Shown here: piece after piece, positions 29,892-62,889 of the stretch | Numbering within the stretch: the first letter of the stretch is position 1 | Layout: each line of letters opens with the position of its first letter | Made by a program: the position numbers and the translations under genes | Notes under the pieces: model-generated | What the model was told of the DNA's origin: nothing | The model's database searches: none | What the model saw: the letters and a program-made list of their open reading frames with translations, nothing else | Source of the DNA: an uncultured Actinomycetes bacterium | GTDB taxonomy: Bacteria > Actinomycetota > UBA4738 > HRBIN12 | Assembly (NCBI GenBank): GCA_963790335.1 | Contig: CAWBOB010000003.1 | Location: forward strand, 223,191-287,190 | DNA: 64,000 nt | Direction: 5' to 3'

Positions 29892-31024
29892 CGGAGGCCG
29901 CGGGCTCGAGCCGCCTGCGTCCCACGTGGGTCGATGTCGACCTCGACGCCGTGGCGCACAACGTCGGCGTGCTGTCGTCGTTCGGGAGCGAGCTGATGGC
30001 CGTCGTCAAGGCCGATGCCTATGGACACGGAGGCGTCGCCGTCGCCAAGATCGCGCTGGATGCTGGCGCGACCTGGCTCGGTGTCGCCCTGGTCGAGGAG
30101 GGTCTCGCGCTGCGCGCCGCCGGTATCGAGGCACCGGTGCTCGTGCTCTCGGAATGCCCTGCCGGCTCCGAGATCCTGGCCGTGTCGGCCGGACTCACGC
30201 CCACGGTGTGTTCGGCGCCCGGCGTCGACCGGCTCGCGCAGGTGGCGCGAACCCTGGGCTCCGCGATCCGGGTGCACGTGAAGGTGGACACGGGCATGCA
30301 CCGGATGGGGGTGTGGCCACCGGATGACGTCGTGCCCTTCGTCGACCGGGTCGGGTCGGCCGGACTGGAGCTCGAGGGGGTGTGGACCCATCTGGCGTGT
30401 GCCGATAGCGATGAGGTGACGACGGTTCGCCAGCTGGAGATGTTCTCGCGAGCCGTGGACCTGGTGCGCGGAGCAGGGTTCGTGCCGCGTCTGCTCCACG
30501 CGGCGAACACGGCGGGGGCGATCGGTTTCCCGGCCGCCCGGCTCGACCTCGTGCGGGCCGGCATCGGCATCTACGGCATCGAGCCCGCGCCGGGCATGGG
30601 CGCCGATCTCGGTCTCCGTCCGGCGCTGACGTGGCGTTCGGCGGTGTCGTTCGTGAAGCGTCTCGCAGCAGGCACGCGGTTGTCGTACGGCCATCGGCAC
30701 GAGCTCGCGCACGACGCCTGGGTGGCGACCGTGCCGGTGGGCTACGCCGACGGCTACGCTCGCATGCTGTCGTCCCGCGCCGACGTCTTGATCGGCGGCC
30801 GACGATGCCCGGTGGCAGGGAGCGTGACGATGGACCAGGTGATGGTCGACTGCGGGGAGACGGAGCCGGCGCCAGGGGACGACGTCGTGCTCATCGGCGC
30901 GCAGGGCTCCGAGACGGTGACCGCCTGGGAGCTCGCTTCGCACGCCGGTACCATCGCCTACGAGATGGTGGCTCGCATCGGCGCCCGGGTGCCGCGGCGC
31001 CATATCGGTCGCGGGGCGTCATGA
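29888..31024 (+). CDS. alr: Alanine racemase
   Basis: 378 aa, VVKADAYGHG (PLP-Lys motif), ...YGHRHEL..VPVGYADGY...; ATGA overlap with nnr. Confidence 0.93.
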   Translation: MTEAAGSSRLRPTWVDVDLDAVAHNVGVLSSFGSELMAVVKADAYGHGGVAVAKIALDAGATWLGVALVEEGLALRAAGIEAPVLVLSECPAGSEILAVSAGLTPTVCSAPGVDRLAQVARTLGSAIRVHVKVDTGMHRMGVWPPDDVVPFVDRVGSAGLELEGVWTHLACADSDEVTTVRQLEMFSRAVDLVRGAGFVPRLLHAANTAGAIGFPAARLDLVRAGIGIYGIEPAPGMGADLGLRPALTWRSAVSFVKRLAAGTRLSYGHRHELAHDAWVATVPVGYADGYARMLSSRADVLIGGRRCPVAGSVTMDQVMVDCGETEPAPGDDVVLIGAQGSETVTAWELASHAGTIAYEMVARIGARVPRRHIGRGAS

Positions 31025-32094
31025 GGAAGCGCACCGCGCTGATCGCAGGAGGGGTCGCGGGAGGCGTCGCCCTCGGCGCGGTCGCGAGCGCCGTCGGCCG
31101 CACGGTGTCGCGCCGCCGGCACGAGCACGCGGAACCCTCAGGCCCGTGGTGGGATCTGCCGCCCGACGATCTCGGCCCGGTGCCTTCGTTCGACGGCACC
31201 CGGCTGGCGGTCAGGGCAGCGGGCGATCCCGCCGCTCCCATGATCCTCTTCGTGCACGGATTCAGCCTCGACATGACCACGTGGCGCGAGCAGTGGACCG
31301 ATCTGTCGGCGGATCATCGATGCGTGCTGATGGATCACCGGGGGCACGGCGCGAGCGAGCATCCCGCCAGTGGCGATCTGTCGGTGCGATCGATGGGTCG
31401 TGACATCGCGGCCGTGATCGACGCGGTGGCGCCCGGCCGCACGGTGGTGATCGTCGGACACAGCATGGGCGCGATCGCGGCGCTGGCGATGGCCGAGGTC
31501 CGCCCCGACGTGATGGCAACCTCGGTGGCGGGGCTCGTGCTCGTGGGGGCGTCCGCATCGGAGCTGGTCCGTGGCGCGATGGGGTCGATCACCGACCTCG
31601 TGCGCCCGCGCCTCGGCTCACTGACCTCGGCGGCCCGCCGCGTCGACCGATTGCGCAAGGCCGTCCTCGCGAGCCCCACGGATCTGCGTGGAGCGGTCGT
31701 GCGCCTCACCCAGCTCGGTCCCGACGCGCCGCGCGACGTCGTCGAGCACGTCGTACGGCTCGCGGAACGCGCCTCCTCGGAGGTGTGGATCGAAGGCCTC
31801 GCACAGCTGCTCGAGACGGATCTGCGCCACGTGCTCACGCGGGCAACCATGCCGGCGCTCGTCATCGTGGGCGAGCACGACCGCGTCACACCACCGGCCA
31901 GCGGCGTGCAGCTCGCTGCGGCGCTCCCTGCGGGCAGGTTCGTGCTGGCCGAGGGGGCAGGCCACATCGCCATGATGGAGCTCCCGGCGATGGTGGACCG
32001 GGAGATCCGGGCGTTCGTGCGTTCCCTGGCGCCGGCGAACCACCCCGTTCGACGGACCCGGCGGTCCCCGACGAACGCGCTGGGAAAGCGATGA
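31021..32094 (+). CDS. Membrane-anchored alpha/beta hydrolase
   Basis: N-terminal TM helix ALIAGGVAGGVALGAVASAV, then ILFVHGFSLD...VIVGHSMGA (GxSxG)...GAGHIAM. ATG 31021 overlaps the alr stop; listed ORF start 30631 lies inside alr. Confidence 0.85.
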   Translation: MRKRTALIAGGVAGGVALGAVASAVGRTVSRRRHEHAEPSGPWWDLPPDDLGPVPSFDGTRLAVRAAGDPAAPMILFVHGFSLDMTTWREQWTDLSADHRCVLMDHRGHGASEHPASGDLSVRSMGRDIAAVIDAVAPGRTVVIVGHSMGAIAALAMAEVRPDVMATSVAGLVLVGASASELVRGAMGSITDLVRPRLGSLTSAARRVDRLRKAVLASPTDLRGAVVRLTQLGPDAPRDVVEHVVRLAERASSEVWIEGLAQLLETDLRHVLTRATMPALVIVGEHDRVTPPASGVQLAAALPAGRFVLAEGAGHIAMMELPAMVDREIRAFVRSLAPANHPVRRTRRSPTNALGKR

Positions 32095-46939: not shown

Positions 46940-48494
46940 GTGGTGTCCGACCCGCGCCCCGTGCTGGTCGTCGATCTCGGGCGCGCAGTACGCGCAGCTG
47001 ATCGCGCGGCGGGTGCGCGAGGCGCACGTCTACTCCGAGATCGTCGCCCACGATGTGCCGGCAGAAGAGGTTCGCGCGCTAGGCGGCCGGCCGGCATCGA
47101 TCCTGAGCGGTGGCCCCGCATCGGTGTACACGGCGAGGGGCTCCGCAGGTGGACCCCGGGTCTGTTCGACCTCGGAGTGCCGGTGCTCGGCATCTGCTAC
47201 GGGCATCAGCTGATGGCGCGAGCCCTCGGCGGCGAGGTGGCGGCCACCGGGCAGCGTGAGTACGGCGCGACGGAGCTCGCGATCGACGAGCGCGGCGGCG
47301 GTGTGCTGCTGCAGGATCTGCCGGCTCGCGACATCGTCTGGATGAGCCACGGTGATGCGGTCACGCGCGAGCCCTCAGGCTTCCGGGTGACCGCGGCGAC
47401 CGACCGGATCCCGATCGCGGCGATGGAGGACCCGGCGCGCGGCCTGTACGCCGTGCAGTTCCATCCGGAGGTGACCCACACCTCCCACGGACAGGACGTG
47501 ATGAAGCGGTTCCTCTACGACGGGTGCGACCTGCTTCCCGACTGGACGCCGACGAACATCATCGATGACCAGGTCGCGCGCATCCGCGAGCAGGTCGGTG
47601 ATTCGCATGTGCTCTGCGCGCTGAGCGGAGGGGTCGACTCCGCGGTGGCGGCGCTGCTCGTGCTATCGGGCGGTGGGGGACCAGCTCACGTGCGTCTTCG
47701 TCGACCACGGGCTGAACCGCGAGGGTGAGCCCGATCAGGTCGAGGAAGCGTTCGCCCGCCACTTCCAGGTGCCGCTCGTGCACGTGAAGGCCGCCGACCG
47801 GTTCCTCGCCCGGCTGGCGGGTGTGACCGATCCCGAGGTGAAGCGCAAGACGATCGGCGAGGAGTTCATCCGTGTCTTCGAGGAAGTCGCCCGCGAGCAC
47901 GCCGACGCGTCGTTCCTCGTGCAAGGCACGCTCTATCCAGACGTGATCGAGTCGGGCTCGAAGACCGCTGCCAACATCAAGAGCCACCACAACGTGGGCG
48001 GCCTGCCCGAGGACATGACGTTCGAGCTCGTCGAGCCGCTGCGTGACCTGTTCAAGGACGAGGTGCGCTCGGTGGGTGCCGAGCTCGGGCTGCCGGAGGA
48101 GATCGTGCAGCGTCAGCCGTTCCCGGGACCGGGGCTCGCGGTGCGCATCGTGGGCGAGGTGACCGCCGAGAACCTCGCGAAGGTCCGCGGGGCCGATTCG
48201 GTGGTTCGCGAGGAGATCAGGCGCGCCGGGCTGGATCGCGAGACGTGGCAGGCGTTCTGCGTGCTGCTCGCCGAGGTGGCGTCGGTGGGCGTGATGGGCG
48301 ACGGCCGCACCTACGAGAACCCGGTGATCGTGCGGGCGGTCACGAGCGAGGATGCGATGACCGCCGACTGGGCGCGGCTTCCCGACGACGTGCTCGACCG
48401 CATCTCGTCGCGGATCGTGCGTGAGGTGCCGGGTGTGAACCGGGTCGCCTACGACATCACGTCGAAGCCCCCCGGCACGATCGAGTGGGAGTAG
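46940..48494 (+). pseudogene. guaA: GMP synthase (glutamine-hydrolysing), four single-nt insertions (about 46982, 47136, 47161, 47664)
   Basis: The conserved sequence is recovered only by hopping frames: RPVLVVDLG | [21 protein letters not shown]...[12 protein letters not shown] | GAPQVDPG | [16 protein letters not shown]...[16 protein letters not shown] | [17 protein letters not shown]...PPGTIEWE. Confidence 0.9.
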
Positions 48495-49744: not shown

Positions 49745-52098
49745 GTGCATGCCACCTACACTGGCCTCGTGAACGCGGTCTCGCCCTTGATCGAGGGCCT
49801 GAACGACATCCAGACCGAAGCCGTCCTGCACACGGAGGGTCCGGTGCTGATCGTGGCGGGGGCCGGAAGCGGCAAGACCCGGGCGCTCACCCATCGCATC
49901 GCCTACCTGATCCGCGAACACGGGGTCTCGCCGTTCGAGATCCTCGCGATCACGTTCACGAACAAGGCCGCCCGCGAGATGGCTGAGCGTGTCGGAGGGC
50001 ATGCTCGGGCGAGCGGGTCACCAGGGGCATGTGGATCCTCACGTTCCACTCGACCTGTGCGCGCCTGCTCCGCCGTGAGCACACGCACCTGGGGGTGCCG
50101 AGCGGGTTCACGATCTACGACGACGGCGACACCGAGCGGCTGATCGCCGGCATCCTGAAGGACCTCGACCTCGACCCAAGCGGTTCCCGCCGCGGGCGAT
50201 GGCGAGCGGCATCTCGCGCGCGAAGGACCAGGTGATCGGGCCCGACGAGTTCGCCGAGCATGGCGCGCAACTTCTACGAGGAGACGATCGCGAAGGTGTA
50301 TCACCGCCTACGAAGCCCGCAAGGCGGCGCGGGGGCGCTCGACTTCGACGACCTGATCACGCGAGACCGTTCGGCTGTTCCGCGAGCACCCCGAGGTGCT
50401 GGACCACTACCAGGAGCGGTTCCGCTACCTGATGGTCGACGAGTACCAGGACACGAACCGCGCGCAGTACGAGCTGGTGAACATGCTCGCCGCGAAGCTA
50501 CCGCAACGTGTGCGTCGTGGGCGACGCCGACCAGGGCGTGTACAGCTGGCGCGGCGCCACGATCCAGAACATCTTGGACTTCGAGCGCGACTATCCCGAT
50601 GCGCAGGTGTTCCTGATGGAGCAGAACTACCGCTCCACGCAGAACATCCTGGAGATCGCCAACGCGCTGATCGAGCACAACCAGCAGCGCAAGCCGAAGG
50701 CGCTGTGGACCGAGGCCGGGTCACGGCGAGCTGATCGTGCGTTTCAGCGCCGAGGACGAGCACGAGGAAGCATTCTTCGTCGTCGACGAGATCGAACGAC
50801 TGCGCGAGACCGAGGGCTTCCGCTACTCCGACGTCGCGGTCTTCTATCGCACGAACGCGCAGTCGCGCGTGCTGGAGGACGTGCTGATGCGGGTCGGCAC
50901 GCCCTACCGCGTGTTCGGTGGCGTGCGGTTCTACCAGCGCAAGGAGATCAAGGACGTCCTCGGCGTACCTGCGCCTGCTGCTGAACCCGCAGGACGTGAT
51001 CTCGTTCCGCCGCGTGGTGAACACGCCCAAGCGTGGCATCGGCGACGCGACCGTCGCGGCCTGGAGTCGTTCGCCGAGACGAGGGCATCGACGTGCTCGA
51101 GGCGGTCGCCGCGTGGACGAGATCGCGGTGTTGCGACCCGGGCGAAGGGGGCGGTGGCCGGGTTCAACCAGATCATGGAGGCGATCCGGCGCCATCACGA
51201 CGACGGCGCTGGGCCCGCGCGCATGGTGGAGTTCGCGGCCTCGAGTCGGGCTACATCGTGGAGCTCGAAGAAGAGCGCACGGTCGACGCGCAGGGCCGTA
51301 TCGAGAACATCCAGGAGCTCGCGGGCGTGTCGCGGCCGAGCTGCTCACGCGCGAGCCCGACGCCGGCCTCGAGCAGTTCCTCGAGCAGGTGTCGCTGATC
51401 GGCGAGCAGGACGAGTACGACGAGGACGCATCGAGCGTCACGCTGATGACACTGCACATCGCCAAGGGACTCGAGTTCCCGATCGTGTTCATCGTCGGGA
51501 TGGAGGACGGCATCTTCCCGCACTTCCGATCGATGACCGACGCCGCGCCCTCGAGGAAGAACGCCGGCTCGCGTACGTGGGCATCACCCGGGCGCGACAG
51601 CGTCTCTATCTGACGCACGCCTGGAGCCGAACGCTCTTCGGCCAGAGCCAGTACAACCCGCCGTCTCGGTTCCTCGGCGAGATGCCGGAACACCTGTTCG
51701 ACGTGCGTGAGAGCGAGGGCTCGGCGACCGGATACGGCGGGCGGTACCGGGAGGTCGCGGAAGCCGTGTGACAGCGGGTGCCGGCCCAGGTCCGGGTTCA
51801 GGCGCCGGCGGGTACCCCGGCGCGGGCCGCGGCGGCGGACGCGTGATCGGCGGACGCCGCGAGCACGACGACGACGACCGTGCCCAGCGCCGACTGGACC
51901 CCCCCGCGACCACGAGGTGTTCCCGCTCGTGAGGTGCCCGTCATCGTGCCGGGCGACACCGTCGTGCACGAACGATGGGGCGAGGGCATCGTGCTCACCG
52001 TGAGCGGCAACGGCGACGGCGCCGAGGCCACGATCTCGTTCCCCGAGGTGGGGGAGAAGCGCGTGCTGCTCGCCTACGCCCCGCTAAGGAAAGCGTGA
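49745..52098 (+). pseudogene. pcrA: ATP-dependent DNA helicase PcrA/UvrD, at least 17 frame breaks
   Basis: All helicase motifs are present but scattered over 10 listed ORFs: [115 protein letters not shown], and the C-terminal domain GDTVVHERWGEGIV. GTG 49769 is an alternative start. Confidence 0.88.
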
Positions 52099-52105
52099 AG
52101 CGGGG

Positions 52106-53586
52106 CTATCTCGCCGACAGGACGTCCAGCACGTTGCGGGTGACCCGCTCGACATCGGGGTCGCCGACCCACGAGTCCGCAGGTCCAGTCGGTGACGCCG
52201 GCGTTGAAGACGGTGCCGCCGCCGTTGGGCTTCGTGAACACGCCGATGCAGGCATGGTTGTTCGTCACCCGGTGCACCTGGTCGCGCCAGCCCGGCCCGA
52301 ACACGGCCATCGCGGTGTTCTCGAGCTCGCCCGGCTCGTGCGCGTACCGGCTCGGCTGCTCGGCTTGACTCCAGAGGCGCGCCGGGGCGGTGGCCAGGAT
52401 CTCGAGCCCGTCGGGCGCGCCGTCGGCCCCGGTCGGGACGGGGAGGCCGTCGGGACCGGTCGTGAGCTCCACGCCGTCGACCTCGTAGGCCACGATCGAG
52501 TCGGCGCGGCCGAGCTCGTCGCCGTAGCGCAGATCCGTGCCCTCGAACGCCCAGTGCTCGGGGCCGCCACACCGTGTACGCGCCCGATCCGCGGGGCACG
52601 CCGAGGCCGTAGCGCGAGTAGCCGCCACGGGTGAAGGTGAGGCCGATCGTGCGCGTCTCGGGCCAGGCGATGCGCCGATCGCTCCACGGCCCGGTCACGA
52701 GTCGCTCGTCGGGGGTGCCGACGACCGGATCCTCGTCGGCCCGGTACTTGAAGCAGGTCATCGTGCGATGAGTCGTCGTCGAACCGCACCTGCCAGAAGC
52801 ACGTGTTCCCGCTGAAGGATCGCCGCGTTGCCGCCGGCGTCGGTGAAGGCGTCGAGGGCCTCGCGCATGCCCCACGACCAGTACTCGTCGTGGCCCACCG
52901 ATAGGTACAGACGGTGGCCGTCGAGCACCTCGGGGTGCTGCTCGAGGTCCTCGGAGATCGCGACGTCGACGCTCGTAGCCGCTCGACTCGGCCCAGCGGA
53001 CGAAGTCGCGCTCCCACGTCGCCCAGCCGGAGCCGCCGCTCCAGACCGACAGCCCGAGCGGCTCCGCCCACCGGAAGTACCACAGGCCCTCCCGGTCGGG
53101 TTCCGGTTGCATCTTGCGCCGCGCCGGTGACGGCTTGTCGAGGAAGCCGCGCGCGAGCGGACGTTCGAACGAGACCTGCGTCCCGCCCGTGTAGAGGCTC
53201 GGGCCGCCCCAGTCGTTGTAGGCGTTCCACGTGGACGTCGAGAGCACGAGCACGATCGGGGCGCGCGTCGCCCCGGGCTCCGGTCGCACCACGAAGAACG
53301 CGTCGGCGCGATCATCGCCCGCGGTGAGCGTCACGGAGTAGTAGCCGCTCCTCCAGTCCGCGCCGATCGGGATCTCGAGCGCCGCCGGCCAGCCGCACCC
53401 GTTCGCCGCTGCATCCGCCGGGGTGTCGAACGCCGTGCCTTCGATCGACCCTGCGCGCCAGACCACCTCGCGATCTGCGCCTTCCCGCGCGACCTCGGCG
53501 TCGAACGTCGTGGCATCGGTCGAGACGTGTAGCGGCAGCGTCTCGCCGGGCGTGGCCGATCGTGGAAAGCAGTACGCCTCGAGCAT
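52106..53586 (-). pseudogene. N,N-dimethylformamidase beta-subunit-like protein, at least 5 frame breaks (about 52971, 52818, 52770, 52561, 52164)
   Basis: MLEAYCFPRSATPGETL...LVLSTSTWNAYNDWGG...WAESSGYE | VDVAISEDLEQHPEVLDGHRLYLSVGHDEYWSWGMREAL...NAAI | FSGNTCFWQVRFDDD | TMTCFKYRADEDP...VWRP | EHWAFEGTDLRYGD...GTVFNAGVTDW...; own stop TAG at 52106-52108. Confidence 0.7.
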
Positions 53587-53590
53587 GCGG

Positions 53591-53755
53591 TTACCGGAAC
53601 AGCGCGAAGTAGCCCGCGACCAGGATCACCATGCCGGCCACGAGGGGAGCGACCACCCATGCCAGTCCGAGGCGTCCTCGGTACGGTCCCAACGTGCCGA
53701 CCTTGGTCGTCGGTTTCAGGCCGGGCGGTCGGATCTGGAGCTTCCTGCGAGCCAC
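53591..53755 (-). CDS. Possible 54-aa single-TM protein
   Basis: Own translation: VARRKLQIRPPGLKPTTKVGTLGPYRGRLGLAWVVAPLVAGMVILVAGYFALFR*. It ends 4 nt before the DMFase-like start. No clear SD and no homology recognised. Confidence 0.25.
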   Translation of the reverse strand: MARRKLQIRPPGLKPTTKVGTLGPYRGRLGLAWVVAPLVAGMVILVAGYFALFR

Positions 53756-53807
53756 GAGCCCAGTCTACGGCGGGTACAGTCGCCGCCCTGTCTGCGGGCG
53801 GTCTAGC

Positions 53808-54974
53808 ATGAGGCCAATGTCGATATCCGAACGCGCGGCTCATGGGATCGATCAGGATGAGGCCGGGCCGCCGCCCTGGCCGACCCTTCCCGGCACCGAC
53901 TATCACTCGCCGGACGTATTCGCGATCGAGCGTGAGCGCATCTTCGCTCGCTCGTGGATCTGCGTCGCCCGGTCTGAGCAGCTCCCCGCACCCGGCGACT
54001 ACATCACGGCCGAGGTCGGAGCCGAATCGCCGCTCGTGATCCGCGGCGACGACGGCCTGCTGCGTGCCTTCGCGAACGCCTGCCGCCATCGTGGCACCGA
54101 GCTGCTCCAGGGCTCGGGCTCGGTGCGACGTGTGATCAAGTGTCCGTACCACGCCTGGACGTACGCGCTCGACGGACGGCTCGTGGGCTCGCCGAACATC
54201 GGCCTCGACGACGGCATCGACCGCGACGCGATCGGGCTGTGGCCCGTGCCCATCGCCGAACACGATGGCTTCGTCTTCCTCAGCCTCGACCCGGATACCG
54301 AGCCGCTCCGCGACGCGTTGGCCGCCCAGCCAGACTCACCGCTCGAGCTCGCTCGCTACGGCCTCGGCGAGCTGCGCGTTGCCGAGAGGCGCGAGTACGA
54401 CGTTCAAGCCAACTGGAAGATCGTGGTCGAGAACTACCACGAGTGCCTGCACTGTCCGACCGTGCATCCCGAGCTCGTGAAGATCGTGCCGCTCTATCGC
54501 AGCGGCGAGGTCGAGGAAGGCGGCCAGCTGCTCGGCAACTCGATGGGCGAGGGTCTCACGTCGTTCACGTTCTCCGGGACCTCCCGTCTTCCCACCCTGC
54601 CGGGCATCGACGAGGTCGACGTGCGTACGTTCTACGGCGTCTACGTGTTCCCGAACCTGATCATCAACTACCACTCGGACTCGGTGAACGCGGTGCGCCT
54701 GATCCCGGAGGCCCCGGATCGCACCCGCGTGGTGAGCGAGTTCCTGTTGCGACCCGAGACGATCGAGGCCGACGGATCCGGCGTGAGCGAGCTGGTCGAG
54801 TTCCGCGACGTAGTCGCCAACCAGGACTGGCAGGTGTGTGAAGCCGTGCAGCGGGGCGTCTCGTCGCGGTTCTACACCGCGGGGCTCTATCCCCGGCAGG
54901 AACGCTGGATCAGAGCCTTCAACGAGCGCTACCTGGACGTGAGGGGTCCACTCCCCACGGCACCCACGCGTTAG
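53808..54974 (+). CDS. Rieske [2Fe-2S] aromatic-ring-hydroxylating oxygenase, alpha subunit
   Basis: CRHRGTELL...CPYHAWTY (Rieske CxH/CxxH), then the catalytic domain NYHECLHCPTVHP; ATG 53808 (listed ORF start 53631 is unsupported). Confidence 0.85.
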   Translation: MRPMSISERAAHGIDQDEAGPPPWPTLPGTDYHSPDVFAIERERIFARSWICVARSEQLPAPGDYITAEVGAESPLVIRGDDGLLRAFANACRHRGTELLQGSGSVRRVIKCPYHAWTYALDGRLVGSPNIGLDDGIDRDAIGLWPVPIAEHDGFVFLSLDPDTEPLRDALAAQPDSPLELARYGLGELRVAERREYDVQANWKIVVENYHECLHCPTVHPELVKIVPLYRSGEVEEGGQLLGNSMGEGLTSFTFSGTSRLPTLPGIDEVDVRTFYGVYVFPNLIINYHSDSVNAVRLIPEAPDRTRVVSEFLLRPETIEADGSGVSELVEFRDVVANQDWQVCEAVQRGVSSRFYTAGLYPRQERWIRAFNERYLDVRGPLPTAPTR

Positions 54975-56317
54975 GCGATCACCCGATAGAGCCGCCACTT
55001 GTCGGGGACTCCTTTCAGCTCATGCTCGCCGGCATCTTCGAAGGCGAGGCCACTTCCTGCGACGAGATCCTTCACGGTCTGGGAGACCAGGAGTTCGGAA
55101 GGCGCCGCCGAGCTCGCGATGCGGGCCGCGATGGCGACGCCGATGCCACTGATGTCGCCGCGTTCGCGCACGATCTCGCCGGTATGCAGCCCCGTTCGGA
55201 TCTCGATCCCGAGCGCATGAACCTCTCGCACGATCCTGACGGCGCACTCCACGCCGCGCGCCGGGCCGTCGAAGGTCGCGAGGAAGCCGTCGCCCATCGT
55301 CTTCACCTCCGTGCCTCCGTGATCGGCGAGCGCCTGCCGAACGACGTCGTCGTGCTGCTGTCGTAGGGCTGCCCACGCGGCGTCGCCGATCGCGGCGCTG
55401 TGCGCCGTGGAATCGACGATGTCGGTGAACAGGACGGTCGCGAGCGCCCGCCCTGCGAGCCCGGGCCGCACGGTGGTGGTTCCGAGCACGAGGCGCTCGA
55501 CTGCGGCCAAGAGGGGCTCGGTGTCGCCGAGGAACGGCCACCAGTCCCCGCCCGGCAGCTCGACGAGCTCGGAACCGGGGATCCCTGTCGCGAGGGCTCG
55601 TCCAGCGCCCACCGGGAGGAGCTGGTCGTCGATGCGGTGGAGCACCTGCGTGGGAACCGTGATCGACGACAGCGCACCGCCGATGTCGGTCTCGAAGAGG
55701 AGGCGAAGGAACCCGACTGCGGAGTTCGGGCTCGCAGCGAAGCGCTGGAGGCGGTCGAGGAACCGGAAGAGCTCGCGGTCGCCGGTATGCGACGGCGCCA
55801 TGACCTCGTAGAGGCGCTGGGATTCCGCGACGGTGCCGTACGTGTGCCGCCACCCGAGAACGAACTCCTCGATCTCGGCGTCGCTCGCGCCTTCGCCTTC
55901 TGTCGCCCGCCAGTTGATCGCGGTCTCCATCAGGCTCAAGGTCCGCACGCGTTCAGGATGGAGTGCGGTGAGGAGGGCGGCGAGCTGCCCGCCTTCGTGG
56001 TGCCCGAACAACGACGCCTTGTCCGAACCGGCGTCGTCCATCACGGCGAGGATGTCGCGCGCTCCTTCCTCGAGCGGGGGAAGGTCATCGGCGGAGAACC
56101 GATCCGACATCCCGGTGCCGCGACGGTCGATCACGATCAGCCGAGCCCATCCGGCGATACGATCGAAGAACGCGGCGGCCTGCGGGCACTCCCACAGCAA
56201 TTCGACGTGCGAGACGAAGCCTTGGACGTATACGAGATCGACCGGCCCATCACCCACGACGCCGTACGCGATGGCGACGTCTCCGTTGAAGGCGTACCGG
56301 GCCCGCGGAGCGGTCAT
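54971..56317 (-). CDS. Alpha/beta-hydrolase-fold + class III adenylate/guanylate cyclase fusion (LipJ/Rv1900c-like), paralogue A
   Basis: 448 aa. The N-terminus has [21 protein letters not shown]...DRRGTGMSDR; the C-terminus has [44 protein letters not shown]. Confidence 0.85.
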   Translation of the reverse strand: MTAPRARYAFNGDVAIAYGVVGDGPVDLVYVQGFVSHVELLWECPQAAAFFDRIAGWARLIVIDRRGTGMSDRFSADDLPPLEEGARDILAVMDDAGSDKASLFGHHEGGQLAALLTALHPERVRTLSLMETAINWRATEGEGASDAEIEEFVLGWRHTYGTVAESQRLYEVMAPSHTGDRELFRFLDRLQRFAASPNSAVGFLRLLFETDIGGALSSITVPTQVLHRIDDQLLPVGAGRALATGIPGSELVELPGGDWWPFLGDTEPLLAAVERLVLGTTTVRPGLAGRALATVLFTDIVDSTAHSAAIGDAAWAALRQQHDDVVRQALADHGGTEVKTMGDGFLATFDGPARGVECAVRIVREVHALGIEIRTGLHTGEIVRERGDISGIGVAIAARIASSAAPSELLVSQTVKDLVAGSGLAFEDAGEHELKGVPDKWRLYRVIA

Positions 56318-56339
56318 CGTGACGCAGAGGCGGTAAGGC

Positions 56340-57686
56340 TCATGTCACGACCCCATACAGATGCCATCGGTCAGGGACGCCTTTCAACTCGTGTACTCCT
56401 GCGTCCTCGAAGATGAGGCCGCTCCCCGCAACGAGATCCTTGACCGTCTGGGAGACGAGCACCTGCGAGGGACCGGCGAGGGCGCCCACGCGGGCGCCGA
56501 TCACGACGCCGAGGCCGGCAACGTCATCGCCCTCGATGGCGACCTCGCCTGTGTGCAGTCCGGCCCGTATCTCGATGCCGAGCGGCGCGACCGCCGAGGC
56601 GACCGCCGTCGCGCAGCGCACCCCGCGGGCCGGCCCGTCGAACGTCGCGAGGAATCCATCGCCCATCGTCTTGATCTCGCTTCCGCGGTACCGGGCGATC
56701 TGCGAGCGCACGATCTGGTCATGACGGGCGCGCACATCGCGCCAACCGGCATCGCCGAGCGCGGCCGCCTGCACGGTGGAGTCGACCACGTCGGTGAACA
56801 GCACCGTCGCGAGGACGCGATCGAAGTCAGCCTGCTCGACGCGGAGCGACTCGACGAACGCCGCGATGTGGGGGACGAGATCGTCGAGCGGGTAGACGTG
56901 GTCCTCTCCCGGGAGTTCCACGATGCGCGCGCCGGGCGTGTGCGCCGCGGTCCACCTCCCCTCGGCGACCTTCGTCATCTGTTCTTCGGTCCGATGCAGG
57001 ACGAGTGTCGGCGCCTGGACGGACGGCAGGATGTGGCGGACGTCGGTCTCCATCACCGCGCGATCGCGTGCGATCGCGTCACCCGGGCTGGCCGAGAGCC
57101 GGAGCTGGCGCCCGTACTCCCGCACCGCGTTCTCGTCGTGCAGGAGCGACGGGGACAGCATCTCGACCACCTCACGGACATGGGCGTCGGTGCCCCACGC
57201 CTGCTCGATCCGCTCGAAGTACTCCTCGTACATCTCCCTGCTCCACGTCGCGGGGTAGTCAGGCGCCGGCGTTCCACGCACCATCGGAGCCAGCACGATC
57301 ACCCCCGAGGTGCGATGAGGATGCGTCGCAGCGAACATGAAGCAGAGCGATGCGCCGCTCTCGATCCCGAACACGAACGCACGCTCCGATGACGCCGCGT
57401 CCATGACGGCGCGGATGTCGTCCATCTGCGCTTCGATCGTGGCCGCTTCGCCGGTCCACGAACGGTCCGACGTGCCGCTGCCACGCCGATCGAAGACCAA
57501 CACGCGCCCGATCGAGGCCAAGCCCCGAACGAACGAGACGAACGGGGGGAAGTCCCACGCCGCTTCGATGTTGGAGTAGTCGTAGGGCACGAACACGATG
57601 TCCACAGGACCGGAACCCACCACCTGGTAGCCCACGTGGATCCCGTCCGCCGCGCGCGCGTACCGTGTCTCGGGGGCCCGGGTCAT
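56340..57686 (-). CDS. Alpha/beta-hydrolase-fold + class III cyclase fusion, paralogue B
   Basis: 448 aa, co-linear with A: [70 protein letters not shown]. Confidence 0.85.
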   Translation of the reverse strand: MTRAPETRYARAADGIHVGYQVVGSGPVDIVFVPYDYSNIEAAWDFPPFVSFVRGLASIGRVLVFDRRGSGTSDRSWTGEAATIEAQMDDIRAVMDAASSERAFVFGIESGASLCFMFAATHPHRTSGVIVLAPMVRGTPAPDYPATWSREMYEEYFERIEQAWGTDAHVREVVEMLSPSLLHDENAVREYGRQLRLSASPGDAIARDRAVMETDVRHILPSVQAPTLVLHRTEEQMTKVAEGRWTAAHTPGARIVELPGEDHVYPLDDLVPHIAAFVESLRVEQADFDRVLATVLFTDVVDSTVQAAALGDAGWRDVRARHDQIVRSQIARYRGSEIKTMGDGFLATFDGPARGVRCATAVASAVAPLGIEIRAGLHTGEVAIEGDDVAGLGVVIGARVGALAGPSQVLVSQTVKDLVAGSGLIFEDAGVHELKGVPDRWHLYGVVT

Positions 57687-59014
57687 GACGTCACCCGGAA
57701 GAGCCGCCAGCGGTCGGGCACGCCCTTCAACTCGTGCTCGCCGGCGTCCTCGAACGCGAGGCCCGATCCCGCAACCAGATCCTTGACGGTCTGCGAGACG
57801 AGGACCTCCGAGGGTGCCGCCATCGCTCCGACCCGGGCACCGATCGCCGCAGTTGGCCCGCCCAGGTGGCCGTCGATCACCTCACACTCGCCGACGTGCA
57901 CGCCGGCGCGGATCTCGAGGTCGAGGTCCCGCACATGCCTCGTGATGGCTTCGGCACACCTAACGGCGGCGGCTGGTCCCTCGAACGTTGCGTAGAAGCC
58001 GTCGCCCGCGGTGTCGACTTCGGCGCCGTCGAACGAGACGAGCTCGGCTCGCACGAGCTCGTGATGTCGCTCGAGGAGCGCCTTCCATCGTTCCATGCCG
58101 AGGCGGAAGGCGGTCTCCGTCGACCCCACGATGTCGGTGAAGAGCACGGCCCTCAGCGCACCGCCCGCCGGTGCCGCTCGCGGAGTGACTCCGATGAAGT
58201 CCCTGATCTCAGCGACGAGGGGAGCCTGGTCCCCGGCGGCCGAGTAGCGCTCCGAGCCCGGCAGGGAGACGAGCTTCGCTCCCGGGATGGCTCGTGTCAC
58301 GTACTCGGCCTCCTCGATCCCTTCCTCGAACGCTCGGACGAGGCAGAGCGTCGGCACCGAGATCGAGGGAAGAACGTCACGGATGTCGGTCCCGTAGAAG
58401 CGACGAAGCAACTCGACTGCGTCGCCCGGTGCTGCCCAGTGACGTTGGAGGCGGGCGTACCATCGGATCAGGCTTCGGTCACCGGCGAGCGACGGCGCGA
58501 CGCCTTCCATGAACGCGGCCGCATATCCGTCGGTTCCCCAGCTTCGACGGACGGCCTCGATGTCGGCGAACGCCTCTTCCTCCGTCGCCCCCCACGGGTA
58601 GCCGTCGGCGATGGTCCCGCGAGCCGCCGGATCGAAGAGGCAGAGAGCGCGGACGCGACGTGGATGGGTCGCGGCGAACAAGGGGGCCACCACGTTCCCA
58701 GCACCGACGATGACCGTCGAACGAGAACCCACCGCATCGAGCACCGCCAGGATGTCGCGTGCCTCGGTCTCGAGATCGGGAAGGCCGGCGTTTCGATCGG
58801 AGAGACCGGTGCCGCGCATGTCGTGACGGATCACGCGGGAGAAGGTGTTGAGCTTCGTCGTCAACGCCGGGATCAGCGGATGCTCCCACTGCAGCTCCAG
58901 TCCGCCATTGAAACTGTGGATCCACAGGACGTCGACCGGGCCGTCACCGACCACGTGGTAGGCGATGTGCACCCCGTCCTCGGTCAGCGCGTATCGGGTC
59001 TCCGGAGCGTCCAC
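57683..59014 (-). CDS. Alpha/beta-hydrolase-fold + class III cyclase fusion, paralogue C
   Basis: 443 aa, [69 protein letters not shown]; its stop overlaps the paralogue B start (ATGA). Confidence 0.85.
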
Positions 59015-59015
59015 C

Positions 59016-60359
59016 TCAACTCACCACCCGATACAGGCGCCAGCGGTCGGGCACGCCCTTCAGCTCGTGCTCGCCCGCTTCCTCGAACGTCAATCCGGAT
59101 CCCGCCACGAGATCCCTCACGGTCTGCGAGACGAGCACCTCCGAGGCGCCGGCCATCGCTCCGACGCGCGCCCCGATCACGACGGCCATCCCGCCGACCT
59201 TGCCGTCGATCGACTCGACCTCGCCCGTGTGCACGCCCGTGCGCACCTCGATGCCGAGCGGCGCGATCGCGGCGACGATCGCGCCCGCGCACCGCACGGC
59301 TCGAGCGGGCCCGTCGAACGTCGCGAAGAACCCGTCGCCAGCGGTATCGACCTCGACCCCGCGGAAGCGGGCGAGCTGTCCCCGCACGCGACGATGGTGC
59401 GTCTCGAGGAGCTCCTTCCAGGCTCGATCCCCGAGCTCGGCGGCCTTCTCGGTCGAACCGACGACGTCGGTGAAGAGCACGGTGGCGAGCGCGCGGTCGA
59501 GTCCGGCTTCCGTCTCGCCGAGCTCCAGGACGAACCGTTCGACCTCGTCGAGGATCTCGTCCTGCGGACCGACCCACGGGAAGTGCACGCTGCCCGGCAG
59601 CTCGACGAACTCGGCGCCGACGATCCGTTCGGCGGTGTCTCGGCTCTCCTCGATCGGGAAGTCGAGGTCGCCCGTCCTCGCGATCACGAGCGTCGGCACG
59701 TGGATCGACGCGAGTGCGTGCGTGGCGTTGATCTCACGGTTCATGCGTTCGAGCGTGATCGCGGCCGAGGGGCTCGCCGATCGACGCATGTAGGAGGCGA
59801 GCCACGTGATCAGCCGTTCGTCTCCCTCGAACCCGGGTGCCCCCCAGTTCTCGGTCTCGTGGCGCGCGAACTCGGTGGTGCCCCAGGTGCGCTCCAGGCG
59901 CTCGAGGTAGGCAGCGTCGTCATCCTTGTAGTCCGGCGACCTGATCGTGAAGTCGGCTGCGGTGCCGTAGAGCGCGAGCGCCACCGTGCGTTCCGGATAG
60001 GTCGCAGCGAAGAGCATCGACATCGGGCCGCCCTCGGACACTCCGAAGACCACCGCCCGCTCCGACCCCACGGCGTCCATCACGGCTCGCACGTCGTCCA
60101 TGCGCGTCTCGAGGTTCGGCAGGCGATCGTCGGGCACGCGATCGGACAGTCCGACGCCACGCTTGTCGAACAGGATCAAGCGCGAGATCGTGGCGAGACG
60201 GTCGAGGAACCTCGCGAAGTCCGGTTCTTCCCACATGGCCTCGACGTTCGAGAGCCACCCCATCACGAACACCATGTCGACGGGCCCGTCGCCGACGACC
60301 TGGTAGGCGATGTGCACACCGTCGGCGGCCTTCGCGTACCGGGTCTCGGGGCTGCGCAT
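59016..60359 (-). CDS. Alpha/beta-hydrolase-fold + class III cyclase fusion, paralogue D (only copy with intact GxSxG)
   Basis: ATG 60359 (GGAG 9 nt upstream) gives [28 protein letters not shown], matching the other copies. Motifs: [45 protein letters not shown]. The listed TTG 60395 adds 12 aa. Confidence 0.85.
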
Positions 60360-60431: not shown

Positions 60432-60842
<411 letters not shown>

Positions 60843-60879
60843 TCCTGCTCAGACTACCGATCATCGTCCCGGGGGCTCC

Positions 60880-62024
60880 ATGGACCTGTACGAGCACCAA
60901 GGCAAGGAGCTCTTCCGTTCCCAGGGCATCGTGACGCCGAAAGGCATCGTGGCCGAGACCGCCGAGCAGGCTGCCGATGCGACCCGCGAGCTGGGTGGCC
61001 GCAGCGTCGTGAAGGTCCAGGTGCAGGTCGGCGGACGCGGCAAGGGCGGCGGCGTCGTGCTGGTCGACTCGCCCGAGCGGGCCGCCGAGGAGGCGGCCCG
61101 CATGCTCGGCTCGGACTTCAAGGGGCACCGGGTGAACCAGGTGCTGGTCGAGGAGCTGCTGCCGATCGCGCACGAGTTCTACACGTCGATGCTGCTCGAT
61201 CGCTCCACCGGCGATCACCTCGCGATGATGACCGCCGAAGGAGGCATCGACATCGAGGAGCTCGCGCGCACCCGGCCGCAGGCGCTTCGCCGTGTGCACA
61301 TCGACGCGATCCTCGGGCTGCGCGCCTTCCACGTGCGCGAGCTCGTCGGCACGCTGCCAGCCGGCGCGCGCGAGGGAGCGGCCGACGTACTGCGGCGCAT
61401 GCACGACCTGGTGCAGGCACGTGACGCGACGCTCGTCGAGGTCAACCCCCTCGTGCAGCTCGACGACGGCTCGGTCGTGGCGCTCGACGCCAAGGTCACG
61501 GTCGACGACAACGCGCTGTTCCGCCACCCGGAGATCGAGGCGTACGCCGACGCGTTCCCGATCGATCCCGTGCAGGCGCGGGCGAACGAGGAGGGCTTGC
61601 AGTACGTGAAGCTCGAGGGCAGCGTCGGCATCATCGGCAACGGCGCCGGCCTCGTGATGTCGACGCTCGACCTGGTGGCACAGGCGGGCGCGAAGGCGGC
61701 GAACTTCCTCGACGTGGGGGGAGGGGCGAGCGCCGACCAGATGGCGGCCTCGCTCGAGGTGGTGCTCTCGGATCCGTCGGTGCGGCGGTGCTCATCAACA
61801 TCTTCGGGGGCATCACCCGGTGCGACCTGGTCGCCCGGGGCGTGCTCGATGCGCTCGAACGGGTCGAGGCCTCGGTACCGCTCGTCGTGCGGCTCGACGG
61901 CACCAACGCGGCCGAGGGGCGCGCGATCCTCGATGCCGCCGCGCACCCGCGCATCGTGTCGGCGGCGACCATGCCCGAGGCGGCCGAGCTGGCGGCTTCC
62001 TCGGCGAACGGACGGGCGGCGTGA
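60880..62024 (+). pseudogene. sucC: Succinate--CoA ligase beta subunit, one nt missing at about 61785 (G run)
   Basis: MDLYEHQGKELFRSQGIVTPKG...VKVQVQVGGRGKGGGV...[15 protein letters not shown]...LSDPSVR | [20 protein letters not shown]... (listed ORF 61788-62024). Confidence 0.9.
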
Positions 62025-62889
62025 GCATCCTCGTCGGCGAGCAGACCCGGCTCGCGGTGCAGGGGCTCACGGGCAAGGAGGGCACGTTCCACAGCCTGCG
62101 GAACCGCGCCTACGGCACGAACGTCGTCGCGGGCGTCACGCCCGGCAAGGCCGGGCACGAGGTCGAAGGCATCCCCGTGTTCGACACGGTCGCCGACGCG
62201 GTCCGTGAGGCGGGCGCGAACACGAGCGTGATCTTCGTGCCTCCTCGGTTCGCGGCCGAGGCCATCCTCGAGGCCGCGGACGCCGGCGTCGCGCTCGTCG
62301 TCTGCATCACCGAGGGCATCCCGGTCAAGGACATGGCGTACGTGCACGGCTTCCTGAAGGGGCGCGGTACGACGCTCGTCGGCCCCAACTGTCCCGGCGT
62401 CATCTCGCCCGGTCAGGCGAACGTCGGCATCATCCCGCCCGAGGTCTGCATGCCCGGACGGGTCGGGTTCGTGAGCCGCTCGGGCACGCTCGTCTACCAG
62501 ATCGTGCACGAGCTCACCCAGCACGGCATCGGTCAGTCGACGTGCGTCGGCATGGGCGGCGACCCGGTTCACGGCCTAGGGTTCATCGAGGCGCTGACCG
62601 CGTTCGAAGCCGACCCGGGGACCGACCTGATCATCATGACCGGTGAGATCGGGGAGACGACGAGGAGCGTGCCGCGGCCTACGTCGACGAGCACGTCACG
62701 AAACCGGTGGTGGCCTACATCGCCGGGTTCGAGGCACCTCCGGGCAAACGCATGGGTCACGCAGGGGCGATCGTGACCGGTTCGACGGGAACGGCGGCTG
62801 CGAAAGCCGACGCGTTGCAAGCCGCGGGCGTGCGTGTCGCTCGCACGCCCGGCGAGGTCGCCGAGCTCACCCGGGCGGCGCTCGCATGA
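62021..62889 (+). pseudogene. sucD: Succinate--CoA ligase alpha subunit, one nt missing at about 62654 (G run)
   Basis: [25 protein letters not shown]...[11 protein letters not shown]...SRSGTLVYQ...IIMTGEIG | [41 protein letters not shown]...; GTGA overlap with sucC. Confidence 0.9.

Follow-up and report, generated by a model that had tools for sequence, protein, structure and literature searches.

The nucleotide choice of class III cyclases is still predicted chiefly from two residues, and the locus described here raises the question of what should be expected when that pair is reversed. We analyzed a stretch of 64,000 nucleotides (the window) of contig CAWBOB010000003.1, assembly GCA_963790335.1, from an uncultured soil Actinomycetota bacterium in which the LipJ/Rv1900c-type family is much expanded. 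Four neighboring genes of this family in the window, A to D, each encode an N-terminal alpha/beta-hydrolase and a C-terminal class III cyclase domain; A and B carry the purine-selecting pair known from adenylyl cyclases, and C and D carry it with the charges exchanged. We find that the two residues change together across a large family and that the exchange has arisen repeatedly, and we suggest, with the doubts set out below, that C and D may be shifted toward GTP.

In what follows, site 1 is the residue four positions before the second metal-binding Asp, site 2 the residue 11 positions before the catalytic Arg, and the Asn position, occupied by the transition-state Asn in canonical enzymes, the residue four positions before that Arg (Table 1). 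All four proteins retain both metal-binding Asp residues, the catalytic Arg and the triphosphate-binding Lys, which lies in the C-terminal ELKG motif. The initial annotation had read Lys..Asp (site 1..site 2) in A and B, Asp..His in C and Asp..Lys in D, with Ala, Val, Ala and Val, respectively, at the Asn position, and our alignments confirm each of these residues. The motifs it quoted were likewise recovered: all four copies have LFTD, A and B have E(V/I)KTMGDG, C and D have EVDTAGDG, and the Arg-region motif reads GDISGIGVAIAAR in A and DDVAGLGVVIGAR in B, its C and D versions also being as quoted. The canonical adenylyl cyclase pair (Lys at site 1, Asp or Thr at site 2) is present in A and B and not in C and D, and neither the Asp and His of C nor the Asp and Lys of D match the guanylyl cyclase-type pair (Glu at site 1; Cys, Ser, Thr, His, Ala or Gly at site 2).

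The assignment of these positions is supported by comparison with solved structures. The best match of the A-D cyclase domains in the Protein Data Bank is the cyclase homology domain of Rv1900c (1YBT; HMMER E-values of 1e-52 for D and 1e-45 for A), and the key columns land on N, D, H and R of Rv1900c EVNTAGDG...TDVAGVAVHIGAR, the Asn-position column aligning with the His of VHIGAR. The next match, Ma1120 (4WP9), aligns here without gaps, and the same columns correspond to K101, D157, A164 and R168, of which K101 and D157 are substrate-binding and A164 and R168 transition-state positions (PMC4215837). An AlphaFold model of D (predicted local distance difference test score 87.9) has 1YBU and 1YBT as its top Foldseek matches, with template-modeling (TM) scores of 0.85-0.93, and superposes on Ma1120 with TM scores of 0.90-0.95. 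The mammalian register is as expected though weak: a 295-sequence family profile aligned to the C2 domain of rat adenylyl cyclase 2 (AC2) placed site 2, the Asn position and the Arg at D1018, N1025 and R1029, with a weak score and over the C-terminal half only, and hhalign of a four-sequence cyclase profile to the same domain gave nothing usable. The Rv1900c and Ma1120 alignments and the model of D agree, and the claim that the listed residues sit at canonical positions holds, as does the remark that Rv1900c itself deviates, with Asn replacing Lys and His replacing Asn.

How far does the exchange in C and D extend through the family? When one genome per species was scanned, 80 loci were obtained, nearly all from uncultured Actinomycetota metagenome-assembled genomes (MAGs), and aligning the six-frame open reading frames (ORFs) of these loci to the family profile yielded 151 genes with a complete cyclase domain. 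Both metal-binding Asp residues and the Arg are found in 151 of the 151, and the triphosphate-binding Lys in 145. The commonest pair is Asp..Lys (69 genes), followed by Lys..Asp (39) and by the Rv1900c-like combination of Asn, Ser, His, Gly or Thr with Asp (about 18). Sorted by charge, Lys at site 1 goes with an acidic residue at site 2 in 41 genes and with a basic one in none, and an acidic residue at site 1 goes with an acidic one in seven and with a basic one in 74 (Fisher p 1e-25, with no correction for relatedness). A second, independent search returned 9,028 clusters at E-values up to 1e-30, whose representatives are less than 50% identical to one another; the best 150 of these 9,028 representatives include 47 with K..D, 31 with D..K, six with D..R, 12 with N..D and none with Lys and a basic residue, and D..K, D..R and E..R jointly account for 38 of the 150. 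These predicted proteins show that the purine-selecting residues change together, as Lys with Asp or as Asp with Lys, Arg or His, and that Lys never occurs with a basic residue. Other pocket positions covary with the pair (numbered as in A, 341, 346, 323, 385 and 386): two residues after site 1, Met or Thr accompanies Lys and Ala accompanies Asp, and seven residues after it, Leu accompanies Lys and Phe or Tyr accompanies Asp. Pairs without opposite charges (N..D, S..D, H..D, D..G and D..Q) are also common in the family.

A neighbor-joining tree of the cyclase domain, built with the sites in question masked, placed A and B inside a K..D clade, in which the Asn position is Ala, Val or Ser, and C and D inside a large D..K clade, and the two sub-types that had been proposed from the four copies are therefore real. 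The exchange was not a single event, because two K..E..H sequences (L044 and L070) are nested in the D..K clade, where they are 77-81% identical to D..K sequences and keep that clade's other pocket residues, and because D..R forms arise in a separate background. On this evidence, the swap arose independently at least three times; parsimony event counts exceed three, but the trees are rough.

The signatures of the individual genes, including the state of the hydrolase catalytic triad discussed below, are stable. Orthologues of A in two other loci (L001 and L002) retain His-Asp-Trp and K..D, and all seven B orthologues from other MAGs have K..D..V (site 1..site 2..Asn position) and Glu-(Asp/Asn)-His. 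For C, 22 orthologous clusters at 74-85% identity all lack the nucleophile elbow, and 20 of them combine Asp at site 1 with His (17) or Arg (three) at site 2; relatives at 60-66% identity have Lys at site 2. For D, 117 of 120 clusters at 80-91% identity have Ser-Asp-His together with D..K..V. Since orthologues from other assemblies keep each signature, the pattern goes beyond chance.

What, then, would the exchanged pair select? In adenylyl cyclases, the Lys binds adenine N1 and the Asp binds the N6 amine, and Ma1120 with ATP shows both contacts. The main determinant in guanylyl cyclases is the acidic residue at site 1, which binds N1/N2, while their site 2 varies (Cys, Ser, Thr, His, Ala or Gly). 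We propose that each protein could act alone as a head-to-tail homodimer with two equivalent sites, and that A and B, with the Lys..Asp of Ma1120, would convert ATP to cyclic AMP (cAMP). In C and D, site 1 would offer a hydrogen-bond acceptor and site 2 a donor, the opposite of what adenine needs. The arrangement would be complementary to guanine, in which N1-H and N2-H2 donate and O6 accepts, and for this reason C and D may be GTP-shifted or dual-specific, forming cyclic GMP (cGMP) or both cyclic nucleotides, in which case the operon would provide two distinct signals. Taken as a whole, the explanation of a LipJ-like operon with cAMP-forming A and B and GTP-shifted or dual-specific C and D seems to us evenly poised between right and wrong. 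For the GTP shift of C and D taken alone, our confidence falls somewhat short of even. The wider proposal that the Asp..Lys/Arg/His branch might be a large unrecognized clade of bacterial guanylyl or dual-purine cyclases is tentative, and we think it rather likelier to fail than to hold.

Several points weigh against a GTP shift or against the evolutionary picture behind it. In the searchable literature we found no assayed enzyme that combines a site 1 Asp with a site 2 Lys. At site 1, known guanylyl cyclases have Glu rather than Asp, which is shorter, and the residues reported at their site 2 do not include Lys. In the KDA-to-EGY triple mutant of Ma1120 the guanine is flipped by 180 degrees, and it follows that a flipped adenine could fit the reversed pair, with C and D being adenylyl cyclases. 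Rv1900c is reported to have adenylyl as well as guanylyl cyclase activity with no canonical pair, and the scaffold may for that reason be loosely selective. Class III cyclases are also said to owe their specificity to catalysis and not to binding, which limits any prediction from two residues. The trees behind the event count are, as noted, rough, and assembly indel errors occur near the operon; yet A to D are unbroken, and orthologues bear out their key residues.

The chief rival is that the exchange is neutral for specificity and preserves a salt bridge or the shape of the pocket, so that all four proteins would be adenylyl cyclases (C and D with a flipped adenine or few base contacts) that differ only in regulation by their hydrolase domains. 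The strict charge complementarity, with no Lys paired with a basic residue and few acid pairs, is what a conserved ion pair would produce; the base flip is documented in the closest scaffold, that of the Ma1120 triple mutant; Rv1900c functions with no canonical Lys; and the hydrolase domains of the four copies diverge strongly (Ser-Asp-His, Glu-Glu-His, His-Asp-Trp and a deleted elbow). However, the added pocket changes (Ala two residues and Phe or Tyr seven residues after site 1) exceed a neutral exchange, and an acidic residue at site 1 of Ma1120 (K101E) lowered adenylyl and raised guanylyl cyclase activity. Moreover, the pairs that lack opposite charges are common enough in the family that an ion pair is evidently not needed for folding. 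We consider a specificity-neutral exchange unlikely, although it is the alternative that has to be taken most seriously.

A non-purine substrate for C and D (CTP or UTP, as in Pycsar cyclases), or another product, is very improbable. Their base-selecting pair is unlike that of any characterized purine cyclase, and PADLOC returned faint PycC matches in the array (E-values of 0.002-0.008). These matches, however, are insignificant and limited to A, a copy of the canonical type, with none for C or D, and PADLOC gave no credible defence-system match. No effector gene lies next to the operon, whose flanks consist of housekeeping genes, namely sucCD, guaBA and a gene for a B12-binding mutase subunit, and by homology to 1YBT (58-60% identity) the pocket is expected to be hydrophobic and purine-sized.

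The missing Asn had led to the suggestion that each of the four enzymes is likely weak alone. The absence of Asn in A-D is real, yet on the aligned sequences it is ordinary for this lineage: among the 151 genes and the best 150 representatives, His is the commonest residue at this position, followed by Ala, Val, Ser, Thr and Asn. Ma1120, which has Ala there, is active as an adenylyl cyclase, and A164N sharply cuts its activity (PMC4215837). Rv1900c, with His there, is reported to be active on ATP and GTP, and Xanthomonas XC_0250 is an active guanylyl cyclase with neither the Asn nor the Arg. Given that the Asn-less state is the family rule and that relatives are active, there is no ground to expect weak enzymes, and the suggestion is not supported. 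The same evidence bears on the idea that some or all of the cyclase domains are inactive pseudo-enzymes kept as scaffolds. The missing Asn and the clear degeneration of three of the four hydrolase domains would be in keeping with it, but the metal-binding Asp residues, the Arg and the Lys are conserved across the family, and Ma1120, Rv1900c and XC_0250 are active relatives that lack the Asn. We regard this idea as the least probable of those considered here. Pseudogene status for A-D was also rejected, given the conserved catalytic core.

The initial annotation further compared the four copies with the asymmetric C1/C2 pairing of mammalian adenylyl cyclases. In such a model, co-transcribed paralogues (A or B with C or D) would heterodimerize to form unlike sites, and the homodimers would be weak or inactive. 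In its favor, the four genes belong to one operon and are coupled in translation, Rv1900c was crystallized as an asymmetric homodimer, as the title of Sinha et al., 2005 has it, and mixed arrays occur in other genomes (L012, L022, L031 and L037). The analogy, however, requires complementary degeneracy, and none is seen: all copies, like the 151 relatives, retain both metal-binding Asp residues and the Arg. Neither are unlike neighbors enriched, a K..D gene standing beside a D..K gene nine times among 53 adjacent pairs of family genes, where 13.1 +/- 2.6 would be expected, and 76 genes, of every type, are singletons within the fetched flanks. A syntenic array in three related MAGs holds only D..K/H members and no K..D gene. 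Finally, in class III dimers sites 1 and 2 come from one chain and line one pocket, and their coupling hence requires no partner. We conclude that C1/C2-style pairing is not supported and, as a general explanation of the operon, improbable; heterodimers among co-translated paralogues are possible, but nothing demands them.

The hydrolase halves carry a pattern of their own. In all four proteins, Abhydrolase_1 and Guanylate_cyc score above the Pfam thresholds (for Guanylate_cyc, PF00211, 33.6-46.9 bits against a cut-off of 21.9 bits), and the NCBIfam LipJ model NF058673 covers them end to end (profile positions 5-448 of 449). The NF058673 scores of 346-402 bits are far under the 800-bit equivalog cut-off, and A-D are accordingly LipJ homologues, not equivalogs. 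Triad positions were taken from the alignment and not from a structure. On this basis, D is the sole copy with G-x-S-x-G (GVSEG elbow), Asp and His, that is, with an intact Ser-Asp-His triad. In A the triad is degenerate (His-Asp-Trp), in B the nucleophile position is Glu (GIESG) and the triad reads Glu-Glu-His, and in C the nucleophile elbow is deleted (IVG--AGN), with two residues gone. Because the states of A, B and C are conserved in their respective orthologues, stable non-catalytic forms look likelier than ongoing decay, and the hydrolase domain in these three is probably a non-catalytic regulatory or ligand-binding module. A sensory or regulatory role for the triad-less domains would be our guess. 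The N-terminal half of the D model superposes on esterases and enol-lactonases with TM scores of about 0.8, and its Foldseek matches also include the plant hydrolase-receptors D14 and KAI2, which suggests that the triad-less domains of A, B and C could be ligand sensors. Elsewhere in the window, a fifth alpha/beta-hydrolase, which has a Ser-Asp-His triad but lacks a cyclase domain (Abhydrolase_1 E-value 4e-26), is weakly related, at 46 bits, to the hydrolase half of the LipJ-like family.

An ORF scan of the minus strand between 54971 and 60359 shows four consecutive ORFs with high third-position G+C content, and from their layout D, C, B and A form a single predicted operon transcribed from D to A. 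The GTG start of C follows the stop codon of D after 1 nt, the stop of C and the start of B share an ATGA overlap, and 22 nt separate B from A. The ATG of D is preceded by GGAG; an upstream TTG, considered as an alternative start, is less plausible. The array had been placed at 54971-59600, of which the first coordinate stands and the second does not, since it truncates gene D. Aligned end to end, the four proteins are 46-48% identical in pairwise comparisons. The operon is divergent from a gene for a B12-binding mutase subunit and convergent with a gene for the alpha subunit of a Rieske ring-hydroxylating oxygenase, the end of which overlaps that of gene A by about 4 nt.

Using the C orthologue at 84% identity, we found syntenic loci in three related MAGs (L081-L083), which share the flanks of the operon: sucD, sucC and the B12-binding subunit gene lie to one side of it, and a DMFase-like gene to the other. 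The array in these MAGs consists of a hydrolase whose cyclase is internally deleted (profile positions 293-375 gone, the metal-binding Asp lost), the C orthologue (D..H..A) and two D..K genes. The Rieske gene is absent beside this array, which points either to an insertion in the window or to a loss in the three MAGs. These MAGs also carry intact versions (385, 289 and 487 amino acids) of genes that are split between frames in the window, and the nearby frameshifts consequently look like assembly indel errors and not pseudogenes. At eight other loci, a class III cyclase with Glu..Gly..Asn..Arg, mostly within a very long ORF (about 500-1,660 codons between stops), lies within a few kb of LipJ-like genes, mostly of the D..K type; the window has none. 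The Glu-Gly pair has been reported for the cyanobacterial guanylyl cyclase Cya2.

Table 1. Positions of the genes, codons and neighboring features discussed in the text. Site 1, site 2 and the Asn position are defined in the text; positions in loci other than the window follow the numbering of that locus.
Feature	Sequence	Positions	Strand	Description
Gene D	window	59016-60359	-	447 amino acids; first gene of the operon; ATG at 60359; cyclase residues D298, D338 (site 1), D342, K387 (site 2), V394, R398, K434
Gene C	window	57683-59014	-	443 amino acids; GTG start; cyclase residues D294, D334 (site 1), D338, H383 (site 2), A390, R394, K430
Gene B	window	56340-57686	-	448 amino acids; cyclase residues D299, K339 (site 1), D343, D388 (site 2), V395, R399, K435
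Gene A	window	54971-56317	-	448 amino acids; last gene of the operon; cyclase residues D299, K339 (site 1), D343, D388 (site 2), A395, R399, K435
Site 1 codon, D	window	59346-59348	-	Asp
Site 1 codon, C	window	58013-58015	-	Asp
Site 1 codon, B	window	56670-56672	-	Lys
Site 1 codon, A	window	55301-55303	-	Lys339
Site 2 codon, D	window	59199-59201	-	Lys
Site 2 codon, C	window	57866-57868	-	His
Site 2 codon, B	window	56523-56525	-	Asp
Site 2 codon, A	window	55154-55156	-	Asp388
Asn-position codon, D	window	59178-59180	-	Val
Asn-position codon, C	window	57845-57847	-	Ala
Asn-position codon, B	window	56502-56504	-	Val
Asn-position codon, A	window	55133-55135	-	Ala395
Fifth alpha/beta-hydrolase	window	30415-32091	+	no cyclase domain
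guaA	window	46940-48494		split across frames, at least two frame shifts
DMFase-like gene	window	52074-53586		spread over three frames
Rieske oxygenase alpha-subunit gene	window	53631-54974	+	
sucC	window	60808-62208		frame-split; Ligase_CoA domain ends at 52 of 128 profile positions
sucD	window	61820-62776		frame-split; Ligase_CoA domain ends at 62 of 128 profile positions
Syntenic array	L081-L083	6821-12027		
Glu..Gly..Asn..Arg ORF	L014	2011-6120		
Glu..Gly..Asn..Arg ORF	L029	612-4793		
Glu..Gly..Asn..Arg ORF	L040	6232-8985		
Glu..Gly..Asn..Arg ORF	L049	10872-15257		
Glu..Gly..Asn..Arg ORF	L053	2895-7886		
Glu..Gly..Asn..Arg ORF	L058	4210-8469		
Glu..Gly..Asn..Arg ORF	L066	9365-10900		
Glu..Gly..Asn..Arg ORF	L077	12688-15204		

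Bacterial guanylyl cyclases are considered rare, and proteins of this family are currently annotated as adenylate/guanylate cyclase or as carboxylesterase. The family offers a natural, recurrent and strictly coupled reversal of the purine-selecting pair among thousands of members, close to the crystallized Rv1900c and Ma1120, and related paralogues from the same operon make a clean system for testing the part that the pair plays in specificity. A GTP preference of the reversed form would mean that cGMP signaling in soil Actinomycetota is far commoner than annotation implies, and if the branch is indeed a guanylyl or dual-purine clade, soil Actinomycetota would widely produce cGMP and this operon would place cAMP-forming and cGMP-forming paralogues next to each other. 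Should the reversed form have no preference for GTP, the two-residue rule would break down in a new manner, for which base flipping would be the likely reason. The graded loss of the triad among the paralogues also informs on the role of the LipJ hydrolase domain.

How does the operon compare with systems already described? Mycobacterial cyclases are well known to vary at the base-selecting positions; for the reversed Asp..Lys pair, its coupling and its abundance, and for the expansion of the family, we found no description in the literature searched, which included few subscription journals. The closest system is Rv1900c/LipJ (1YBT, 1YBU; NF058673), which has the same two-domain architecture, a cyclase domain 58-60% identical to those of A-D, both metal-binding Asp residues and the Arg, and, like them, no canonical Asn. 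It has Asn..Asp..His where A and B have Lys..Asp..Ala/Val and C and D have Asp..His/Lys..Ala/Val, and A-D differ from it further in being four tandem copies, three of them with a degenerate hydrolase triad.

Ma1120 of Mycobacterium avium (4WP9, 5D15, 5D0E) is about 37% identical and, unlike A-D, lacks the alpha/beta-hydrolase domain. Its residue set, K..D..A..R, is that of A, and B is the same except for Val at the Asn position. We know of no natural Asp..Lys form of Ma1120; the engineered forms that accept GTP pair a site 1 Glu with Gly, Thr or Cys at site 2. The guanylyl cyclases sGC, RhGC, CYG12 and Cya2 share an acidic site 1 with C and D, and guanylyl cyclases allow His at site 2, as in C (PMC4215837). 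Their acidic residue is Glu rather than Asp, however, Lys or Arg has not been reported at their site 2, and they are not specifically related in sequence to the A-D family. The mammalian C1 and C2 domains share with A-D the fold and the positional roles (K938, D1018, N1025 and R1029), and as paralogous domains A-D could likewise pair; but C1 and C2 are complementarily degenerate and together form one active site, whereas in each of A-D the Asn is the one catalytic residue missing.

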